A stretch of 64,000 bases of DNA from Patescibacteria group bacterium (GCA_050942955.1 JBMNOG010000002.1:32762-96761), one strand, 5' to 3'; positions 19,385 to 27,604 are shown, numbered from the stretch's first letter. A program made the numbers and translations. Notes: generated from the letters alone by a model not told the origin.

Positions 19385-19578
19385 CCCTTCTTTTACCCAT
19401 TGCTTTTCTCTAATCAATTTCATAATCACAAAACTGTCACTATAAAGAGGGAGATGAAAGCTTGAGAGTATTGCAAAAATTACCAAAATAGATTTTCTTG
19501 CTTAGTTCTTACACTTCTTTGATTTTGTTATTACTCCGAATAAGCAAAATAGTTTCCATAATAAATAAACCAAAATGT

Positions 19579-20115
19579 ATGCTTAATTTAAAGCTCATAG
19601 CTGTAACGGCATTTATCCTTAGCATAGCTATTGCCCTTCAGAATGTACAGAATATTGCCAAAGCTTCTCAAAACTATGAGAGTTCGGAGCTAATTTCCCC
19701 ACTGCCGGTAGAACCAGTTTTACCTTCAGAAGAAGCTCCTTTGGATACACCAAGTACCTTAGAATTTTTGGAAGACATCAGCAAAACTAATCCTGAAGAA
19801 CCAACCATTTCTTCTGAAAATAGTCTTTACCGCTTTGTCTATCCTAACGCTCAGGTACTCCAGGAAACTCTGACAACTTTCAGCCTTAATACGCCAGACA
19901 GCCCTGAAACCGTAACCGAATGGTATAAAAAACTTTTTGCCCAAAGTGAAATGAAGGCTCAAAGCACCATACAAACCAGAACAAACAATTTGGTAATTAA
20001 CACTTTAACCGGAGCTAATTTGGACTATGAGGTAGGTGTCCGTATTAAAAGTGACACTCCCGGAAACACTGACATTTATGTTGAAGTTATCAATTTTTAC
20101 AAAGAAAATATATGA
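19579..20115 (+). CDS. Secreted hypothetical protein
   Basis: Signal peptide MLNLKLIAVTAFILSIAIALQ. The stop overlaps the next gene (ATGA). Confidence 0.45.
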   Translation: MLNLKLIAVTAFILSIAIALQNVQNIAKASQNYESSELISPLPVEPVLPSEEAPLDTPSTLEFLEDISKTNPEEPTISSENSLYRFVYPNAQVLQETLTTFSLNTPDSPETVTEWYKKLFAQSEMKAQSTIQTRTNNLVINTLTGANLDYEVGVRIKSDTPGNTDIYVEVINFYKENI

Positions 20116-20729
20116 AAATTCCAAGAGTATTTCCTCATATTTCTTCTGGGGAAAGTAGTTACAAGCGGTTCGTCTATATTGCTATAGCTTTATTTGCAGT
20201 CGGAGCAGTCATTGCTGGTAATGGCTTTATTTCAAGAAGCCGCAATACTCAGGCATCTGATTTAACCACTTCACAGACTGATTCTAAAAATGTTATCCCT
20301 TCTCCTCAGCCAAAAGCAATCAAGGAGATCAATCAGAATTTCTCATTTACTTTAGGTACAGGAAGAGACACCACCACCGTAGATTACACCATTGAAAATG
20401 CGGAGCTAGTTGATGAGATTATTATTGGCGGCCAAAGAGCACGAGCAGTTTCAGGCCGCATGTTTCTAATCTTAAATCTAAAAATTACCAATACCAACAA
20501 CCAGGGAATCCAGATTAATACCCGTAACTTTGTTAGAGTAGCCAGAGAAACTATACCTGATGAATGGCTAGCTCCGGATATCCATAATGATCCGGTCGAA
20601 GTGCAAGCAGTTTCTACAAAGCAAACCAGAGTCGGTTTTCCTGTGAGCAGTACCGATCAGGCTTTTACCTTAAGAGTCGGTCCGATTGACGGAGAAAAGA
20701 ATGACATAAACCTTTCATTTAAAAACTAA
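20112..20729 (+). CDS. Membrane-anchored hypothetical protein
   Basis: TM segment VYIAIALFAVGAVIAG followed by an extracytoplasmic domain. Confidence 0.45.
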   Translation: MKIPRVFPHISSGESSYKRFVYIAIALFAVGAVIAGNGFISRSRNTQASDLTTSQTDSKNVIPSPQPKAIKEINQNFSFTLGTGRDTTTVDYTIENAELVDEIIIGGQRARAVSGRMFLILNLKITNTNNQGIQINTRNFVRVARETIPDEWLAPDIHNDPVEVQAVSTKQTRVGFPVSSTDQAFTLRVGPIDGEKNDINLSFKN

Positions 20730-20770: not shown

Positions 20771-20796
20771 GCGGAGAGCCCCTCTCCGTTTTTATT
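20771..20796 (+). terminator. Rho-independent terminator
   Basis: CGGAGAG-ccc-CTCTCCG hairpin followed by TTTTTATT, 40 nt after the 20729 stop. Confidence 0.7.
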
Positions 20797-20970
20797 CGTC
20801 CTGCCTATTATTAAGGTAAAAATATCCTGCTAAACGAACCAATTTCTATTACTTTATTCTTACTGGTTTTTCATTTTCCTGTAAAAGTAATGCAATAAAC
20901 TCTGACGAAGTGAAGTGCCCCTCATGCATGTTTGAGGGAAACGCCAAATAGAGAGGAGGTGAGTAGAAAA

Positions 20971-22206
20971 ATGAAAAAACTTTTTAGAAAGCTGGCTGCT
21001 GCCGCAGCACTAAGCTCCATGCTACTTCAAGTCTTTGCCTCTATTGCTTTAGCTGAAACTATTGAAATTTCCGGTAACGGCGCTGATTCTGAGAACGATG
21101 CGATGGTAAATACTACCAAACAAACAACTGTCGTCCAAAACAACACTGCTGAGATCTTTAACGATATTGAAGCTGAGGCTGAGACAGGCGAAAACGAGGC
21201 TAATGACAATACCGGGGGTGATACGCTTATCATGACTGGTAATGCTACGACATCAGTAGATGTTGCAACAAGAGTTAATCTCAATGCGATAGAAGACAGA
21301 GTTGAGACACAGAGAGACGACACCAGTATTCTGATTTCCGGTAACGGAGCAGATTCTGACAATGACGTTGATCTGAATTCTCTCGAAGAAACAGAAATTT
21401 TCCAGGATAACTTTGCTTACATTGAAAACGATATTGAAGCTGAGGCTGAGACAGGCGAAAACGAGGCCAACCGTAATACTGGCGGCGAAACCGCTGTTAT
21501 TACCGGCCATGCCACTACCGAAGTCGAAGTTTCTAATGTAGCTAACGCCAACCTGGTTGATCTCAGAGGTCCAACAAACGGAACAGTCCCAACCTACGAT
21601 ATCAGGATTGTCGGCAATGGTGCTAATAGCAGGACAAATGTCGACGTTAACCGGCAAAAATTCCTGACAATTGTTCAGGATAACTTTGCAGATATCTTCA
21701 ACTATGTTGAGGTTGAAGCAGAGACCGGTGAAAACGAGGCCAATGATAATACAGGCGGGGACGTCATGATTGACACAGGTATGGCTCAAGCTTCTGCAAC
21801 TGTAGAAAACTGGGCAAACCTGAACGTGGCTACTACCAATGGATGGCTGCCGGAGGTTCTGGCAAAAATTTATGGGAATGGAGCTTTATCCCGAAACGAT
21901 GTTGATGTTTGCTTCTTAGATGAAGTCGCCGTTTTCCAGGGAGATGACGGAGAGAGTGGAAACGTTCTCTTCCTTGAGAATGATGTTGATAACGAACCCG
22001 AAAGCGGTGATAACGAGGCAAACAGAAATACGTATGGCGAAGGTGATCCACTCGTGATTACCGGCCATGCTCTATCCGATGTCCTAGTAAGGAACACGGC
22101 TAACGCCAATTACTATGGCACCCGTCCTGCTATGGACTGGTTTGATAATTTTGAATTGAACTTTTCGTTCAATTTAGGAGGTCTCGTAGGTAGGTTACTT
22201 AGGTAA
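20971..22206 (+). CDS. Secreted protein of four tandem ~85-90-aa repeats (novel repeat family)
   Basis: Signal peptide KLAAAAALSSMLLQVFASIALA. Repeats share GNGA(D/N)S...(V/F)Q(D/N)N(F/T)A.I.N.(I/V)E(A/V)EAETGENEAN(D/R)NTGG....TG.A...V...AN(A/L)N. A 35-nt exact DNA repeat occurs at 21165 and 21426. RBS GAGAGGAGG. Confidence 0.7.
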   Translation: MKKLFRKLAAAAALSSMLLQVFASIALAETIEISGNGADSENDAMVNTTKQTTVVQNNTAEIFNDIEAEAETGENEANDNTGGDTLIMTGNATTSVDVATRVNLNAIEDRVETQRDDTSILISGNGADSDNDVDLNSLEETEIFQDNFAYIENDIEAEAETGENEANRNTGGETAVITGHATTEVEVSNVANANLVDLRGPTNGTVPTYDIRIVGNGANSRTNVDVNRQKFLTIVQDNFADIFNYVEVEAETGENEANDNTGGDVMIDTGMAQASATVENWANLNVATTNGWLPEVLAKIYGNGALSRNDVDVCFLDEVAVFQGDDGESGNVLFLENDVDNEPESGDNEANRNTYGEGDPLVITGHALSDVLVRNTANANYYGTRPAMDWFDNFELNFSFNLGGLVGRLLR

Positions 22207-22222
22207 CACATTGTAGTCAGAT

Positions 22223-22259
22223 GGGGAGTTTCCTGGTCGCACTTCAACAGAAACTCCCC
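22223..22259 (+). other. Perfect 10-bp inverted repeat (GGGGAGTTTC...GAAACTCCCC) with a 17-nt loop, between the two surface-protein genes
   Basis: Read directly. It is followed by an A-rich tract rather than a U-tract, so it is not a classical terminator. Confidence 0.4.
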
Positions 22260-22293
22260 GTCACTACACATAAAAAAACAAAAAGAAAGATGT

Positions 22294-24570
22294 ATGAAAG
22301 TCGCTACGATTAAAAAAACAATAATAACTTTTTTTCTCCTTTATTGGAGTGCATTCTCAATAGTCCCAGTTAGAGCTCTTGAAGCCCCGTCCTCACCCAG
22401 TGCTCCTTCTGCACCTGCATCACCTTCATCAGAAACTTCTGACCCAAATGACTCAAGTGAAAGTACAGACACACCCTCTGCTCCAGAAACCCCATCAGCC
22501 CCTTCGCTAAATGAATCTAATGAGGAAGATACAGCTGAAGAAGAATCCCAATCACCAGCCCCTTCACCAACACCTGAACCAGCACAGGCAGAAACTCAAT
22601 CAAACACAAGTAATAGTAGTACTGACAGTCAAGGTAGTTCTACCAACAGCACAGCTGATAATGTCGTTAACGACGGGAACACCGGGGAAACTGTTATCAA
22701 AACCGGAGATGTTACCACTACAGGGACAGCCGCAACAATCGCTAACACTAATACAAACACTCAAAGTGGAACATCAGCTTTAAATGGAGATATTGTGGTA
22801 ATAACTGAAGATAATGGTTCTGGTTCCATTAATAATACTGATTATGAAGTAATAGATGATTCTCAAACTCTTCAGGATAATAACGCAGCAGTTGGCAATA
22901 ACCTTAATCTTGATTCTGTCTCAGGCCACAACTCAGCTTCAAAAAACCTTGGCGACTCGATGATTATTTCAGGGGATGCTAATGTCAGCGGTACGGCAGT
23001 CACTGCAGTTAATACTAATGTAGACGGTGTTGGTTTAGCCCACTTCACCATTGCCGATGATCACAAAGGTGACATTATTCTAGATTTTAGCAGCTTAGTC
23101 CCCCAGGAAGGCACTGGCTCGGCCGTAACTACCACCTCTGGTAACGGAAGTAACTCTGAGAATGACAGTTCCCTTACGTTTCTATCAGACAGCGATACAT
23201 TCCAAACCAATGACGCCGCAGTTGGTAATAACTTAACTCTTGTGGCTGACAGCGGCCTGAATACTGCCAGTTACAATACCGGCGGCGACTCAATTATCAA
23301 AACAGGCGATGCCAATGTTTCAGCCAATGCTATTACCTTTGCTAACAATAATTTCTCAGGCAATGTTATTTACGCAGTTGTCGATATTTTTGGCAGCCTT
23401 GAGGGTGATATTATTTTACCTCTGGAAGCTTTTAATGCTTTCCTGTCAGCAACTTCTTCTGCCAGCCTTGCAGCTGCAACAACTGGAAATGGCAGTAATT
23501 CCACCAATACAACAGAATTTGCTGACACTGAAACTTCAACCCTAGTCCAGGATAATAATGCCGAGATAGCTAACGACATTACTGCAGAGGCTACAACCGG
23601 AGATAACCAAACCAGTAACAACACAGGCGGCAACTCCATTGTTAAAACAGGCAATGCTGATACTGATGTAAATGTCTTAAACATAGCAAACAATAATCTT
23701 GAAGGCGGCAACTGGTGGTTAGTGCTGGTTAATAAAGCCGGACAGTGGATCGGTAAAATCTTTGGAATGAAAGATGGCGCTGTTGCCGCCGGTTCAGAAG
23801 GTTTAGAGGTTACAGTTAACGAAGACGGTTCAGTCAACGCCACTAATGGCTCCCAACCCGCAACAGTAACCACTACAGAAAACGGCGCTAACTCTAAAAA
23901 TGTAACTACTATTACCCAAACAGAAAACAGCGAAACATTCCAAACAAATAACGCTGCTATTAACAACAGCTTGAATCTGACAGCAAATACCGGTGGTAAC
24001 ACCGCTAGCTATAACACAGGTGGCGACTCAACTATTATAACCGGGGATGCTAAGATTGTGGCTAATATTGTTAACTTTGTAAACAACAACATCGCCACTG
24101 GCGGCAAACTGATCGTCACAGTAATCAATGTCTTTGATAAATGGTTCGGGGATTTTCTGCCCCCTGGAGTAACAAAACCCACCGAAGAAGACCCGGGTGG
24201 GAGTAACGATCCCGGTACGGGTGGGGGAGGAGTTAATCCAACCCAGGAAAATACAAACAACAATAGCACTTCCGTTTCAGAAGATAGCAGTCAGGAAAGT
24301 AGCTCTACTCAAAGCACGGAAAATACTACAAGTACCACAGGTAAAGTTTTAAGCTACTTTAAATCTAACCGCAACCAACAAGTAGTCGAGCAAACAAATG
24401 ACAATCAGGATAGTAAAGTTTTAGGCGAATACTTCAGTAACACCAATTCCAAACAAAAGGTTGATGTCAATCTGGCCTGGCTCCTTCTGGGAATACCTGG
24501 ACTGGGGGTAGCTCTACTTATCAAACGGAGGCGAAAAATTGCCAACTGGATACGCTTCAACCTCTTTTAG
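22294..24570 (+). CDS. Large (758-aa) secreted/cell-surface protein. It has a signal peptide, a Ser/Pro/Thr/Glu-rich linker, at least five copies of the same repeat family as the upstream gene, and a C-terminal hydrophobic segment followed by a basic tail.
   Basis: Repeats such as FQTNDAAVGNNLTLVADSGLNTASYNTGGDSIIKTGDANVSANAITFANNN. C-terminus LAWLLLGIPGLGVALLIKRRRKIANWIRFNLF. Confidence 0.7.
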   Translation: MKVATIKKTIITFFLLYWSAFSIVPVRALEAPSSPSAPSAPASPSSETSDPNDSSESTDTPSAPETPSAPSLNESNEEDTAEEESQSPAPSPTPEPAQAETQSNTSNSSTDSQGSSTNSTADNVVNDGNTGETVIKTGDVTTTGTAATIANTNTNTQSGTSALNGDIVVITEDNGSGSINNTDYEVIDDSQTLQDNNAAVGNNLNLDSVSGHNSASKNLGDSMIISGDANVSGTAVTAVNTNVDGVGLAHFTIADDHKGDIILDFSSLVPQEGTGSAVTTTSGNGSNSENDSSLTFLSDSDTFQTNDAAVGNNLTLVADSGLNTASYNTGGDSIIKTGDANVSANAITFANNNFSGNVIYAVVDIFGSLEGDIILPLEAFNAFLSATSSASLAAATTGNGSNSTNTTEFADTETSTLVQDNNAEIANDITAEATTGDNQTSNNTGGNSIVKTGNADTDVNVLNIANNNLEGGNWWLVLVNKAGQWIGKIFGMKDGAVAAGSEGLEVTVNEDGSVNATNGSQPATVTTTENGANSKNVTTITQTENSETFQTNNAAINNSLNLTANTGGNTASYNTGGDSTIITGDAKIVANIVNFVNNNIATGGKLIVTVINVFDKWFGDFLPPGVTKPTEEDPGGSNDPGTGGGGVNPTQENTNNNSTSVSEDSSQESSSTQSTENTTSTTGKVLSYFKSNRNQQVVEQTNDNQDSKVLGEYFSNTNSKQKVDVNLAWLLLGIPGLGVALLIKRRRKIANWIRFNLF

Positions 24571-24601: not shown

Positions 24602-25615
24602 CTACCCGAAGGTAAAGGCAAATACTTCAAGATTGTCGTCCAAAAACTCAAGCTGAAGAAGGTGGTTATCTGCTTTAGTTAATCGTATAAGATTATACAA
24701 GCGATCCTCAGTTACCGGCACAATACCAGCATCCACATCTTCACCTGCTGCATTTTCCTTAACTTGTTCATGATCAAGCAAGACCTTTACCTGGCCCGAT
24801 TCCTTTTGGGGACGCATAACTAAGTAGACTTCCTTTGCATTGAAATGAAGAAGGAGCATACTGCCATGTGTAGGCTGGGCATGGTGTTCTTTCACCGTCC
24901 ACTTTCCTAAAAACGCAAAGGTGTTAAGCAGTAGCTCATCAGGAGTAGTGTAAATACTAAGTTTATCAGGAACTACTTCTTCAGGTGAAGCCAAGTAAGA
25001 CACTCTTAGATACCTCAAGTATAGTTCCGGCGTCTGGGCCTCAATTATATAAGGTGGGTTCTCTACCAAAATACCATCTATATTTGCCCCAGCTTCCTTT
25101 AGGAGTTCTTGGATAACCATCTCTGATTCATCGTAACTGCCTTCACCATAGTGAATCCACCTAATTTTGCCGTTGCCATCTACAAAGTATTTTGCCGGCC
25201 AATAGTGATTATCGTACGCATGCCAGGTTGCGTAGTTGTTATCCTGCATAATCGGAAACTTCAAGCCATAGCGCTTGATAGCATTTTCCAGGTTTAGAGG
25301 ATTTTTCTCAAAGTCAAACTCCGGCGAGTGGACACCAACAATCTCAAAGCCTTTACCTTTGTACTTTTCATACCAGCGGTTGAGATAAGGAAAAGTCCTG
25401 ATACAGTTAATACAGGAATAGGACATAAAATCAACCAAAACAACTTTTCCCCGCAATTCTTTCAAAGTGAGAGGTTTGGAATTGAACCATTTACCTCCTG
25501 GGATAAACTCGGATGCAGAAACAAAACCTTTTTCTAGAATTACTGACATACCAAAATTATTGTAGTAAAACAGGCCTGAAAATAGAGTGAAGAGGAATTC
25601 CTCCTGTTTACCCAA
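24602..25615 (-). CDS. Thioredoxin-fold redoxin (TlpA/AhpC-TSA-like, CxxC) with a ~160-aa C-terminal domain of unknown function
   Basis: VVLVDFMSYSCINCIRTFPYL with a CINC active site. The first start codon is TTG; the ATG at 25549 (MSVILEKG) is an alternative start. Confidence 0.7.
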   Translation of the reverse strand: MGKQEEFLFTLFSGLFYYNNFGMSVILEKGFVSASEFIPGGKWFNSKPLTLKELRGKVVLVDFMSYSCINCIRTFPYLNRWYEKYKGKGFEIVGVHSPEFDFEKNPLNLENAIKRYGLKFPIMQDNNYATWHAYDNHYWPAKYFVDGNGKIRWIHYGEGSYDESEMVIQELLKEAGANIDGILVENPPYIIEAQTPELYLRYLRVSYLASPEEVVPDKLSIYTTPDELLLNTFAFLGKWTVKEHHAQPTHGSMLLLHFNAKEVYLVMRPQKESGQVKVLLDHEQVKENAAGEDVDAGIVPVTEDRLYNLIRLTKADNHLLQLEFLDDNLEVFAFTFG

Positions 25616-25685
25616 GTCTTACTTGGCACTTACAAAGCTCACAAACCCGCTCTCTAAACTAAATAGGCAAATTGAAAGGAGGTAT

Positions 25686-26120
25686 ATGTCAACTACAGGC
25701 TTAGACACATTTGACCGTACCGTCCAGCAAACGAATGAGATCCTCGGCAAAATTGAGGAGACATTTAACTGGCAGGGCCGTCGTAACCAGTCCTATGCAG
25801 CCTTAAGAACTGTTATACAAACTCTTCGCGACAGGCTGCCGGTCAAACAGGCAGTTAACTTCGGTTCTCAGCTGCCTATGCTAGTAAAAGGGATTTACTA
25901 CGAAGGCTGGGACCCGGACAAAGTTCCGATGCGCATGGATGAAGAAGAGTTTTTAAATCGGATCCGTCAGGAGTTCCCTTTTTCCTTGCGAGAAGATGTG
26001 AATATTCGAGATGTAACTAAAATTATACTCACAGTCATTATGAATAGAATCTCAAAAGGCGAAGTTGAAGACATAAAGGCAAACTTACCTGAAGATGTAG
26101 CTTCACTTGTTGAAAGATAG
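25686..26120 (+). CDS. DUF2267-family protein
   Basis: GGAGG RBS 8 nt upstream of the ATG; the family's conserved QLP motif (FGSQLPMLVKG); ~144 aa. Confidence 0.6.
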   Translation: MSTTGLDTFDRTVQQTNEILGKIEETFNWQGRRNQSYAALRTVIQTLRDRLPVKQAVNFGSQLPMLVKGIYYEGWDPDKVPMRMDEEEFLNRIRQEFPFSLREDVNIRDVTKIILTVIMNRISKGEVEDIKANLPEDVASLVER

Positions 26121-26132
26121 AAAGGAATAAAG

Positions 26133-26939
26133 ATGCCGTTTTCTGAATGGATCTGGATTTTACTCCTTGCCGGATTTTTTATTTTCCCATGGTTAAGGGA
26201 GTATATAAGAAGAGAGCAAAGGGATTTTTTTCTAAGGCAAATTGAAAAGAAGAGAGGAACCCGGGTAATTGCCATTATCCAAAGATCAAGACTGCCTTCG
26301 CTCTTAGGCTTGCTGTTTTCCAAATTCTTAAGTCTTGATGATTCCGAAAAGATTGTCAGACTACTTAGAAAAACAGACAAAAACAAGCCTATTGACCTTA
26401 TTATTCACTCTCCAGGGGGGTTAGTCATTGCTGCCCGGCAAATTGCCCAAGCACTACGGTCACACAAAGCAAAAATTACCGCTTTTGTGCCGTACTATGC
26501 ATTGTCCGGCGGTACATACATAGCTCTAGCTGCAGATGAGATTGTGATGGATAAAAATGCCATTTTAAGCCAGCTTGATCCGCAGATTGCTAACATGCCG
26601 GCAGTTTCCATTCAGGAAGTTTTGAAAAAGAAAAAACCTAAGGATATTGACGACAAAACCATAGTGTTGGCAGATATTTCTGAAAAAGCCATAAGGCAAA
26701 CACAAAACTCTCTTGCGGAAATTCTCCAAGCCAATAACTACACTAAGAAGCAAAGCAAAAAGATAGTTAGTGAACTAATTTCTTCCAAGTACACTCATGA
26801 TAATGCTGTTGACTTTGAAGATGCCAAAAGGTTGGGATTAAGAGTTCGTAGTGATATTCCTAAAGAGATTTATGACCTTATGGAGCTTTACGGAGTTAAG
26901 GATAGGAGTGACTCAATTTTCTATTCATCTACTGACTAA
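26133..26939 (+). CDS. Membrane-anchored ClpP-fold serine protease (SDH / serine dehydrogenase proteinase family)
   Basis: N-terminal TM segment; IDLIIHSPGGLVIAARQIA...YALSGGTYIALAADEIVM. Confidence 0.65.
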   Translation: MPFSEWIWILLLAGFFIFPWLREYIRREQRDFFLRQIEKKRGTRVIAIIQRSRLPSLLGLLFSKFLSLDDSEKIVRLLRKTDKNKPIDLIIHSPGGLVIAARQIAQALRSHKAKITAFVPYYALSGGTYIALAADEIVMDKNAILSQLDPQIANMPAVSIQEVLKKKKPKDIDDKTIVLADISEKAIRQTQNSLAEILQANNYTKKQSKKIVSELISSKYTHDNAVDFEDAKRLGLRVRSDIPKEIYDLMELYGVKDRSDSIFYSSTD

Positions 26940-26956
26940 AACAAGTAGCTAAACTT

Positions 26957-27604
26957 ATGATCCCAATCAGAGATCAAAACAGAAGCAATATCACACCTTT
27001 TATGACATACTTTCTCTTAGCTGCTAATGTAGGCATTTTTCTATTTCTTTTAACACTTTCAAGGAGTGAACTAACTCAATTTATTGAGACTTACGCCTTT
27101 TTCCCCGCCAGCATCCTTAGAGGAGAAAACTATTACAGTGTTATTACTTCAATGTTTATCCACGGCGGGATCCTCCACATTTTCTCAAATATGCTTTTTC
27201 TCAACATATTTGGCGATAATCTCGAGGCCTGGCTCGGACACTTCAAGTATTTACTCTTTTACCTTCTAAGCGGCATTGGAGGTTCAGTCCTGCAAATCGT
27301 TACCAACCCAACCTCGTCTATACCCAATATTGGGGCTTCTGGCGCTATTGCCGGGCTTATGGGTGGATACTTAATTTTGTTTCCCAACAACAGAATAGAC
27401 CTACTGATCCCCTTTGGCTTAATTCTCGGAACTATCAGAGTTCCAGCCTTTACTATACTCTTTTACTGGTTTGTTTTACAATTTATTTTTGGCTTGGGCA
27501 GTCTTTCTTCACTAGGAGGCGGCATTGCCTACTTTGCTCATATTGGAGGCTTTTTAACCGGAGCTTTTGCAGTGCTTGTCATCCGCAGCTTCAGAAAAAG
27601 TTAA
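26957..27604 (+). CDS. Rhomboid-family intramembrane serine protease
   Basis: Six TM segments; catalytic Ser in GASGAIAGLMGGY and His in FAHIGGFLTG. Confidence 0.85.
   Translation: MIPIRDQNRSNITPFMTYFLLAANVGIFLFLLTLSRSELTQFIETYAFFPASILRGENYYSVITSMFIHGGILHIFSNMLFLNIFGDNLEAWLGHFKYLLFYLLSGIGGSVLQIVTNPTSSIPNIGASGAIAGLMGGYLILFPNNRIDLLIPFGLILGTIRVPAFTILFYWFVLQFIFGLGSLSSLGGGIAYFAHIGGFLTGAFAVLVIRSFRKS

Follow-up and report, generated by a model that had tools for sequence, protein, structure and literature searches.

What do two adjacent genes for exported repeat proteins build in a Patescibacteria group bacterium? The pair, which we call G1 and G2, lies in a 64,000-nucleotide stretch of DNA (the window; GCA_050942955.1, JBMNOG010000002.1:32762-96761), and an earlier note made from the sequence alone had described both products as secreted and built from a tandem repeat that could not be matched to a named family.

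Export signals and a predicted membrane anchor

Both ORF calls fall on the plus strand where the earlier note had put them: G1 at 20971..22206 (411 aa) and G2 at 22294..24570 (758 aa). Their N-termini have the makeup of signal peptides, in line with the proposed secretion, combining a basic n-region with a hydrophobic core and an A-x-A-like cleavage site; the Sec signal peptide of G1 covers 20971-21054 (aa 1-28) and that of G2 22294-22377. In G1 four repeats and a conserved C-terminal tail (22123-22203) follow. A scan of G1 for a membrane or wall anchor found none, and its C-terminus has no hydrophobic stretch. G2 continues with a disordered S/P/T/E region (22378-22635, aa 29-114), half a repeat, four full repeats, each followed by a hydrophobic hairpin insert of 23-31 aa, a disordered stalk (24169-24453), a VNLAW motif with a TM helix (24454-24528; NLAW at aa 726, TM at 723-745) and a basic tail (24529-24567), giving the order VNLAW, TM, KRRRK. 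The S/P/T/E region and the hydrophobic-plus-RRRK C-terminus that the note had described are both there. Mature G1 has a pI of 4.05 and a net charge of -56, computed from its sequence, and mature G2 is likewise very acidic.

The predicted C-terminal TM anchor would hold G2 in the membrane. Family-wide, the motif at its start is a near-invariant (I/V/L)NLAW, after which come a hydrophobic stretch that contains a conserved Pro and then a basic tail. More than 495 homologues of G1, mostly of 400-430 aa, and more than 350 homologues of G2, of 660-800 aa, were found; a precomputed PF22251 match on one of the latter scores below gathering and falls within the low-complexity stalk.

A repeat of about 89 residues without named relatives

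An HMM of a single repeat finds four full copies in G1, at 21058-21315, 21328-21567, 21598-21840 and 21862-22122 (aa 30-115, 120-199, 210-290 and 298-384; 80-111 bits). In G2 it finds an N-terminal half copy at 22636-22767 (aa 115-158) and full copies at 22807-23034, 23134-23355, 23479-23700 and 23866-24099 (aa 172-247, 281-354, 396-469 and 525-602), with scores of up to 68 bits; 400 composition-preserving shuffles reached at most 5.5 bits. G2 had been credited with at least five copies, which becomes 4.5, and the unit, put at ~85 aa, measures ~89-91 aa in G1 and 110-130 aa in G2, where it is longer because of the inserts. At the DNA level, a 93-nt family recurs at 21129, 21396, 21669 and 23541, with spacings of 267 and 273 nt.

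Within G1, a perfect 35-nt repeat encoding IEAEAETGENEA occurs at 21166..21200 in repeat 1 and at 21433..21467 in repeat 2, rather than at 21165 and 21426 as first reported. It holds 13 consecutive identical codons, as against 13 of 31 elsewhere. This repeat had been taken as a mark of recent intragenic duplication or gene conversion. The four repeats of G1 do not stem from a recent duplication, because their layout is ancient and fixed across the candidate superphylum; recent local homogenisation is the part of the proposal that stands. Across the family, repeats inside one protein are 55% similar and orthologous repeats ~50%. The repeat number is four, rarely five, across 3,178 clusters, and this fixed copy number argues for a defined folded unit. 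Since length and four-copy architecture are conserved, with orthologues of the same kind in more than 170 species, both an assembly artefact and a VNTR-type variable adhesin are ruled out.

The repeat matches no named family, as the earlier note had suspected: Pfam and NCBIfam give no match at E <= 1. Scans of G1, G2, the neighbouring U1 and U2, and the paralogues G3 and REP200 of related loci (all described below) against both libraries returned nothing above threshold, and the beta-helical 'putative adhesin' models DUF2807 and DUF4097 do not match. A sequence-profile search of the PDB with full-length and single-repeat profiles found no match, and a literature search did not find the family described. 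The repeat domain merits a family model of its own.

With moderate confidence, AlphaFold predicts G1 (pLDDT 74) and G2 (pLDDT 62) as all-beta, with the first half of each G2 module poorly modelled. Foldseek against the PDB gives no significant match, with very low TM-scores, which leaves the detailed fold uncertain; the closest structural neighbours, all weak and generic matches, are beta-helix and beta-roll surface proteins (adhesins, the S-layer protein RsaA, RTX proteins, curli). With RTX beta-roll and other beta-helical proteins (RsaA, RTX adhesins, autotransporter passengers) G1 and G2 would share a generic beta-helix/beta-roll geometry, with turns rich in Gly, Asp and Asn, and a surface location. 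They differ in carrying Sec signal peptides where those proteins use type I or type V secretion, and the GGxGxD nonapeptide family PF00353 (HemolysinCabind) has no match in either protein, although the Pfam library does detect it in a neighbouring protein of related loci. Ca2+ binding by G1 and G2 is conjectured.

A conserved locus in Microgenomates

The repeat profile retrieves its 3,178 protein clusters, and relatives are encoded in 171 GTDB species. All named loci with the family belong to Microgenomates, one of two major branches within the Candidate Phyla Radiation (CPR), and span nine named candidate phyla, across which the sequence (40-50% identity), length and gene order of G1 and G2 are conserved in very different habitats. 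The order U2-U1-G1-G2 is almost invariant among related loci; 71 of 72 have G2 directly downstream of G1.

U1 (20112..20729, plus strand) is the most constant partner of G1, lying upstream of it in 72 of 73 loci. It has an N-terminal TM segment (aa 16-41) and a beta-rich DUF4352-like domain. Half of 16 U1 family members match DUF4352 (PF11611; best E 1.1e-6), and one database homologue carries the domain as a precomputed annotation; the U1 of the window has no match, its profile finds none among solved structures, and its 562 homologues are unnamed. U2 (19498..20115, plus strand) is a small envelope protein, its ORF opening at TTG 19498 with a likelier start at ATG 19579. A hydrophobic segment at its N-terminus leads through a P/T-rich linker into a ~90-aa domain that bears an (I)TxWYK motif, and Pfam gives no match. 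The stop of U2 overlaps the start of U1 by 4 nt, and in 42 of 73 related loci U2 clusters with the upstream genes.

The earlier note had asked whether the repeat sits beside a sortase. In relatives it often does: 36 of 57 related loci (~63%) have a sortase within 8 kb, together with the LPxTG-anchored paralogue G3, which bears a genuine LP[AIV]TG sorting signal. In the sortase consensus, candidate His and Cys (LiLqTC) motifs for catalysis are retained. Related loci thus hold free paralogues (G1 and REP200), a TM-anchored one (G2) and an LPxTG-anchored one (G3, beside the sortase). In the 64-kb window itself, tblastn and Pfam scans of the neighbours found neither a sortase nor further paralogues, G3 included, so the sortase arm cannot be essential. 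Recurrent neighbours in ~80 loci are U1, U2, DUF2292 and the sortase. A rhomboid gene at 26957-27604, considered as a dedicated processing enzyme, was rejected since it does not recur in other loci. The upstream genes, the wide distribution and the flanking RNA elements were absent from the earlier note.

Structured RNA elements flank G1

Upstream of G1 on the plus strand, a terminator-shaped hairpin (CGGAGAG-ccc-CTCTCCG, then TTTTT) at 20772..20793 corresponds in reduced form to a leader element that relatives conserve (AGCUGACCGCAAACGGAGGC...GCCUCCGUUUU). The full element stands 110-250 nt upstream of G1 in 51 loci, and RNAalifold gives it 20 pairs, 10 of them with compensatory changes. The 5' UTR of G1 contains GAAGTGAAGTG (20907-20917) and a CCCTCA...TGAGGG hairpin (20919-20938); a GAAGTG lies 40-80 nt upstream of the G1 start in 57 of 79 loci. 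The strong Shine-Dalgarno (SD) site GGAGGTGA at 20955..20962 places GGAGG 11 nt upstream of the ATG, which supports 20971 as the start, and AAAGGAGGTGAAA is nearly invariant at this site across loci. G2 has no SD in the window and none in 49 of 66 loci; across loci, the mean SD match is 5.7 nt for G1 against 0.9 nt for G2.

Between the two cistrons, a hairpin of three stacked stems at 22212..22268 (plus strand) exposes an apical CACTTC loop (22240-22245). Of 67 loci, 66 have a strong hairpin here, with a median z of -5.9. CACTTC does not vary across an alignment of 55 sequences, and all 13 hairpin pairs show compensatory changes. The motif stands downstream of G1 in 61 of 87 cases, compared with ~2% of other genes. 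The loop (CACUUC) is the reverse complement of the GAAGUG in the 5' UTR; the two co-occur, with some compensatory changes. Bacterial mRNAs with base pairing between 5' and 3' UTRs include S. aureus icaR and B. subtilis hbs. The predicted pairing here is similar in joining the 5' UTR to the 3' hairpin of the same cistron, but the element sits between two cistrons. Such pairing might bring about stabilisation or translational control, or the two motifs might be a shared protein site, and the 3' hairpin may serve to regulate and not to stabilise. At the Rfam gathering threshold neither this hairpin nor the leader element is matched in the window, and seven related loci gave only tRNAs; scanning the locus for consensus promoters and terminators gave nothing above shuffled expectation. 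The two conserved structured elements, absent from Rfam, are possible markers and handles for regulation.

A proposed two-component surface structure

The reading that we favour, tentatively and at a little short of an even chance, is that G1 and G2 make up the two components of a surface coat or fibre, in which G1, free and abundant, docks on membrane-anchored G2. It builds on the export signals, anchor, repeat architecture, conservation, gene order and expression signals observed at the locus, from which we infer the physical association of G1 with G2, the assembly geometry and what U1 and U2 do. The export and anchoring features, conserved family-wide, suggest a surface structure; very acidic proteins are typical of surface layers. 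That a single module recurs in differently anchored paralogues of one locus suggests anchored and free subunits. The strong SD, structured 5' UTR and 3' hairpin of G1, set against a G2 with no SD, suggest a major and a minor subunit. The fixed repeat number, and all-beta models whose best structural neighbours are surface proteins, are in its favour; the moderate confidence of those models, the uncertain fold, the lack of known S-layer domains and of a sortase arm in the window, and a 3' hairpin that may be regulatory tell against it.

Under this scheme G1 and G2 would be exported via Sec and fold into acidic, Asn/Thr/Gly/Ala-rich beta-helix or beta-roll-like rods of one ~89-aa module. G2 would be retained in the membrane by the helix at its C-terminus, with the INLAW motif, a conserved Pro and the basic tail, and its disordered stalk of ~95 residues would lift the 4.5 modules through the wall. 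Unanchored G1, made in large excess over G2, would dock on its anchored paralogue or paralogues by homotypic contacts between the shared modules, to which the G1 tail and the G2 hydrophobic inserts may contribute. The outcome would be an S-layer-like coat or short fibrils. In most relatives the third paralogue, presumably fixed to peptidoglycan by the co-encoded sortase, could provide a second base, and U1 and U2 may act as membrane-bound accessories for assembly or anchoring.

A comparable arrangement is found in Sulfolobales, where the unanchored outer component SlaA pairs with SlaB, which is stalked and held by a TM anchor at its C-terminus; both are acidic and Sec-exported. G1 and G2 resemble this pair, and archaeal S-layer proteins that are C-terminally TM-anchored, as adjacent genes for a free and a stalked TM-anchored acidic protein. 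The folds of SlaA and SlaB are unrelated (Ig-like and coiled-coil), whereas G1 and G2 share one repeat. A G1-G2 lattice, like a very high abundance, is hypothetical, hinted at indirectly by the pI of 4.05, the strong SD and the structured UTR. Known S-layer or wall-binding domains (SLH, CWB2, described SLP families) have no Pfam or NCBIfam match. In the accessible part of a 2024 S-layer survey, the Patescibacteria candidates are different proteins, longer than 1,100 aa and from Parcubacteria, and a search of its supplement for Microgenomates gave no match.

Alternative explanations

The same genes might encode a templated, functional-amyloid-like fibre, in which G2 or G3 nucleates open-ended polymerisation of G1 and beta-solenoids stack end to end into long fibres instead of a coat. 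A precedent is curli of E. coli, with its major subunit CsgA and anchored nucleator CsgB: here too a secreted subunit and a surface-bound paralogue of the same beta repeat are encoded by adjacent genes, and the repeats are rich in Asn, Gln, Gly and Ala, which in G1 and G2 form ladders at the conserved positions. In Streptomyces, long LPXTG-anchored chaplins (ChpA-C) and short secreted ones (ChpD-H) recall the relatives' G3 with its sortase on the one hand and G1 and REP200 on the other. However, a curlin relation is absent at the sequence level (aligned by hhalign with E. coli CsgA, in an unverified sequence, the family profile reaches a probability of 0.6%, and PF07012 is not among Pfam matches at E <= 1); the curli repeat has 22 aa and ours 89; and export by Sec in a monoderm-like cell, with anchoring by TM helix or sortase in the family, differs from curli with its CsgEFG outer-membrane machinery. 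CsgE/F/G-type secretion genes do not recur as neighbours in ~80 loci. Nor does the chaplin domain PF03777 match: G1 and G2 are highly acidic and polar rather than hydrophobic surfactants, and the window has no sortase or LPxTG paralogue. G1, whose two termini are distinct and conserved and whose fourth repeat diverges, looks capped and finite, its charge of -56 would oppose uncontrolled stacking, and the structural matches are weak and generic. We regard such a fibre as unlikely.

Somewhat less probable again is that the C-terminus of G2 is cleaved by a sortase or other protease, so that G2 is transferred to the wall and both proteins are wall-layer components. Like LPXTG proteins of Gram-positive bacteria, G2 ends in a motif, then a hydrophobic segment and then a basic tail, and its near-invariant pentapeptide stands exactly where sortase substrates carry LPXTG. 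In some loci the sortase gene directly follows G2 with no LPxTG paralogue between them, and the NCBIfam scan shows a weak likeness, below threshold, to a CTERM sorting domain. INLAW is a candidate new C-terminal sorting motif. Yet it is (I/V/L)NLAW and not LPXTG, and we know of no sortase motif that lacks the Thr and Pro positions. Loci with no sortase close by, this window included, conserve it just as well, and in the AlphaFold model LAW sits where the TM helix begins, in keeping with a simple interfacial Trp.

A host-attached life is presumed for CPR bacteria, and G1 and G2 could be independent adhesins that separately bind a host cell or substrate, with no common structure. Host-binding adhesins usually diversify fast and vary in copy number, however, and this family keeps 40-50% identity, fixed length and gene order over nine candidate phyla. 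The residues that it conserves (N, G, T, A, Q) are of a structural kind, a variable binding tip is not obvious, and G1, having no anchor, could not tether a cell alone. We consider independent adhesins as improbable as cleavage of G2.

A beta-helix lyase or hydrolase acting on wall or host glycans is very improbable: PL6 lyases, pectate lyases and phage depolymerases appear among the fold-search matches, but these are non-significant and typical of any beta-helix query, Pfam finds no catalytic domain, and the invariant residues, recurring identically in every module, look structural and not like one active site.

The Microgenomates cell surface

The CPR envelope is acknowledged to be little understood, and nearly all Microgenomates carry a sortase. 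Families enriched in lineages are described as 'primarily hypothetical proteins' (PMC6744442). The conserved cassette probably builds part of the Microgenomates cell surface. A bolder version, which we think doubtful as a whole, makes U2-U1-G1-G2, with or without G3 and sortase, the outer surface layer itself, with a fold family without described relatives, a new INLAW-CTERM sorting signal and a major-subunit stoichiometry set by an undescribed RNA device, the GAAGUG/CACUUC pairing of the 5' UTR with the 3'-hairpin loop. Two hypothetical proteins become a defined, testable system: a near-universal envelope cassette of four to seven genes with an explicit prediction of one anchored and one free subunit. 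In the few enrichment cultures, G1 and G2 would be targets for antibodies or tags and could aid the assignment of cryo-ET densities.

Genes and protein architecture

Both genes proposed in the earlier note are present as open reading frames on the + strand: G1, from the ATG at 20971 to 22206, with a GGAGG site 11 nt upstream of the start, and G2 at 22294-24570. DNA repeat finding reveals a 93-nt repeat family in G1, with a spacing of 267/273 nt and a more distant copy in G2. At the protein level we used a single-repeat profile HMM built from the single-repeat alignment A3, which locates four full copies in G1 (aa 30-115, 120-199, 210-290 and 298-384; 80-111 bits) and, in G2, four full copies plus a half copy at the N-terminus; as a control, 400 composition-preserving shuffles were scored, and the highest reached 5.5 bits. 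The earlier count of four repeats in G1 therefore holds, while that of at least five in G2 is replaced by four and a half.

G1 and G2 both begin like a Sec signal peptide, with a basic segment, a hydrophobic segment and an A-x-A site, a layout also kept in the orthologues, and both mature proteins are extremely acidic (pI 4.05; net charge -56 for G1 and -62 for G2). The S/P/T/E linker and the hydrophobic-plus-basic C-terminus described for G2 are there as well, as is its signal peptide: an S/P/T/E disordered region covers aa 29-114, and a second disordered stretch (aa 626-720) precedes VNLAW, a hydrophobic helix of 20 residues and finally KRRRK. Both proteins are clearly predicted to be exported; G2 is predicted to have a C-terminal anchor below a long disordered stalk, and G1 to have none. 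The C-terminus of G2 (24454-24567) has a near-invariant (I/V/L)NLAW pentapeptide at the LPXTG position of sortase substrates; after it come a TM segment in which a Pro is conserved and then a basic tail. A sortase gene lies directly 3' of G2 in some related loci, and the (I/V/L)NLAW-TM-basic end may be a new sorting signal.

A conserved operon of free and anchored paralogues

ORFs were called in every fetched locus and then clustered. The conserved order is U2, U1, (DUF2292 protein of ~77 aa), G1, G2, (G3), (sortase), (REP200), where brackets denote optional genes and REP200 is on the strand opposite to the rest of the cassette. G1 is preceded by U1 in 72 of 73 loci and directly followed by G2 in 71 of 72. 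U2 and U1 are translationally coupled small envelope genes, found in the window at 19498-20729, directly upstream of G1; U1 is a predicted TM-anchored beta domain, DUF4352-like. In G3, the third paralogue, a Pro/Gly linker joins one to three repeats to a canonical LP[AIV]TG-hydrophobic-LRLRSGRSP signal. A sortase gene comes after G3, and such loci frequently also have REP200, with a signal peptide and two repeats (examples: L070:13605-14741, L017:12717-13838 and L001:11470-12659). One module is found in free, TM-anchored and sortase-anchored paralogues of a single conserved operon. The sortase consensus retains candidate catalytic His and Cys (LiLqTC) motifs.

The cassette of the window comprises U2, U1, G1 and G2 only, with no sortase, G3 or REP200 in the full 64 kb. 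The sortase neighbour that the earlier note proposed to look for is a feature of relatives, where 36 of 57 loci have one within 8 kb (and 37 of 57 a third paralogue), and not of the window. Downstream of G2 (24602-27604) are genes for a convergent thioredoxin-like/AhpC-TSA protein, a DUF2267 protein, an SDH-type ClpP-like protease and a rhomboid protease; none of these four types recurs as a neighbour in other loci, and they are unrelated to the cassette.

In several genomes the cassette adjoins genes for a SipW-like signal peptidase (Peptidase_S26), camelysin/TasA-like proteins (Peptidase_M73) and RTX-repeat proteins (surface-type neighbours are found, for example, at L017:16121-16885 and L073:15436-18857), and in others PMT-like glycosyltransferases or a CAP-domain protein are nearby. 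An fn3 protein near some cassettes ends in an APTG-hydrophobic-basic tail resembling a wall-sorting signal. Such neighbourhoods look like cell-surface gene islands.

An undescribed domain family in Microgenomates

The earlier claim of an unnamed repeat stands: G1, G2 and the paralogues have no match in Pfam or NCBIfam at E <= 1, and profiles of the repeat family found nothing among the sequences of all PDB chains. AlphaFold2 gives an all-beta model for G1 (40-sequence alignment; pLDDT 74.3, pTM 0.62). The G2 model is confident in part (pLDDT 61.9 overall), reaching 85-95 in the second module halves and hairpin inserts, with first halves and linkers poor. As a Foldseek search against the PDB yielded nothing at E <= 1e-3, the earlier guess of a beta-solenoid is plausible as a fold class only, and no specific structural relative can be named.

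The organisation of the cassette recalls CsgB/CsgA of curli, the long anchored and short free forms of chaplins, and SlaA/SlaB of two-component S-layers, and in fold class G1 and G2 resemble RTX and RsaA-type beta-rolls. Sequence-based membership tests placed the repeat family in none of the families tested. This makes it an undescribed family of domains that falls within a well-known kind, that of repeat beta-helical surface proteins with anchored paralogues. Our literature search found no description of the family or its operon. According to earlier work, the families enriched in Microgenomates are largely hypothetical proteins, many of them located in the membrane, and sortase occurs almost throughout the group (PMC6744442).

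The feature is real and conserved. More than 495 G1 homologues are in the database, almost all of 400-430 aa and 40-65% identical, and those with a named source belong to Levy-, Ames-, Gottesman-, Woese- and Daviesbacteria; the more than 350 G2 homologues (660-800 aa) come from the same groups, several with locus tags next to a G1 homologue. The single-repeat profile matched 3,178 clusters, 715 of them at E <= 1e-30, in a search of 50% identity clusters with 1.84 billion representatives; four copies is the usual number, with five in some clusters and eight to ten in a few. Relatives are encoded by 171 species in GTDB data (one genome per species), and the names on the 80 fetched loci cover nine candidate phyla within Microgenomates. 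Many public contigs with the Patescibacteria-type operon are titled 'uncultured Gammaproteobacteria bacterium' (L005, L007, L008 and others); these titles look like placeholders or mis-assignments.

RNA elements around G1

In 66 of 67 loci the spacer between G1 and G2 (median 102 nt) has a long hairpin, whose median z against shuffles is -5.9; in the window it spans 22212-22268, with a CACUUC loop motif at 22240-22245. In an alignment of 55 sequences the stems vary, CACTTC in the apical loop is invariant, and each of the 13 pairs called by RNAalifold has compensatory double changes. CACTTC is found 3' of 61 of 87 G1 genes as compared to ~2% of other genes. In 57 of 79 loci its exact complement, GAAGTG, which like CACTTC is G1-specific, stands 40-80 nt 5' of the start of G1; next come a variable hairpin and near-invariant AAAGGAGGTGAAA. 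The window has GAAGUG(AAGUG) and the hairpin at 20907-20938, in the G1 5' UTR.

The two hexamers co-occur: 49 loci have the pair and 10 lack both, the 3' motif stands alone in 6 and the 5' motif in 1 (Fisher p = 3.8e-7). A few variants are compensatory (TAAGTG with CACTTA in L044, AGGTG with CACCT in L057) and others wobble-compatible (GGAGTG, GAGGTG); when partners were shuffled among the 18 variant loci, the observed pairing was reached in 110 of 5,000 shuffles. Complementarity, co-occurrence and these variants together suggest that GAAGUG and CACUUC pair 5' to 3' within the G1 mRNA, or bind a shared factor.

Further upstream, 110-250 nt before G1, 51 loci have a leader of the form AGCUGACCGC-AAACGGAGGC...GCCUCCGUUU-U(n), a terminator-like hairpin in which the base does not vary and the upper stem shows covariation; it may be an attenuator. 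It also precedes some REP200 genes, and the window has a reduced copy at 20772-20793. The leader can also be written AGCUGACCGC + AAACGGAGGC...GCCUCCGUUUU, with full versions, for example, at L006:5738-5805 and L017:9061-9137. Rfam has no match for the 3' hairpin, the 5' UTR element or the leader; like the protein family, the RNA elements are without annotation in current libraries. G2 has no Shine-Dalgarno sequence in 49 of 66 loci, whereas that of G1 is strong in all. Taken together with the 5' and 3' RNA signals, this contrast indicates that G1 is probably expressed apart from G2 and much more strongly.

Possible roles of the cassette

We tentatively favour a reading in which G1 would be the abundant outer component and would dock on its anchored paralogues by homotypic contacts between modules, forming a surface coat or short fibrils, with U1 and U2 as putative membrane-bound accessories. 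A templated fibre, as in curli or chaplins, would share the organisation of those systems; it appears unlikely, and E. coli CsgA scored a probability of 0.6% against the family profile in profile-profile comparison. Somewhat less likely still, G1 and G2 could be independent adhesins. Similarly doubtful is that G2 is sorted by a new INLAW pathway, to which its near-invariant C-terminus would be suited; this is compatible with docking of G1 on anchored paralogues. That the all-beta modules form a beta-helix enzyme is very improbable.

Evolution of the repeats

Across 40 orthologues, G1 repeats 1-3 inside one protein have a mean identity of 55%, and between species the mean is ~50% at orthologous and 44% at non-orthologous positions, so the repeats combine positional memory with some concerted evolution. 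The four-copy architecture is ancient. A perfect 35-nt repeat does exist in G1, at 21166 and 21433, slightly off the coordinates first reported, and corresponds to 13 consecutive identical codons between repeats 1 and 2; at the remaining 31 identical residues of these two repeats in the window, the same codon is used in only 13. It fits a short gene-conversion tract, one of the two origins suggested earlier, and not the other, recent duplication.

Most G1 orthologues have paired cysteines (CC, CxC, CGC) between repeats, at ~aa 108-118 and 288-296 of the orthologue alignment A1. G1 of the window has lost these pairs and has one Cys in the whole protein.
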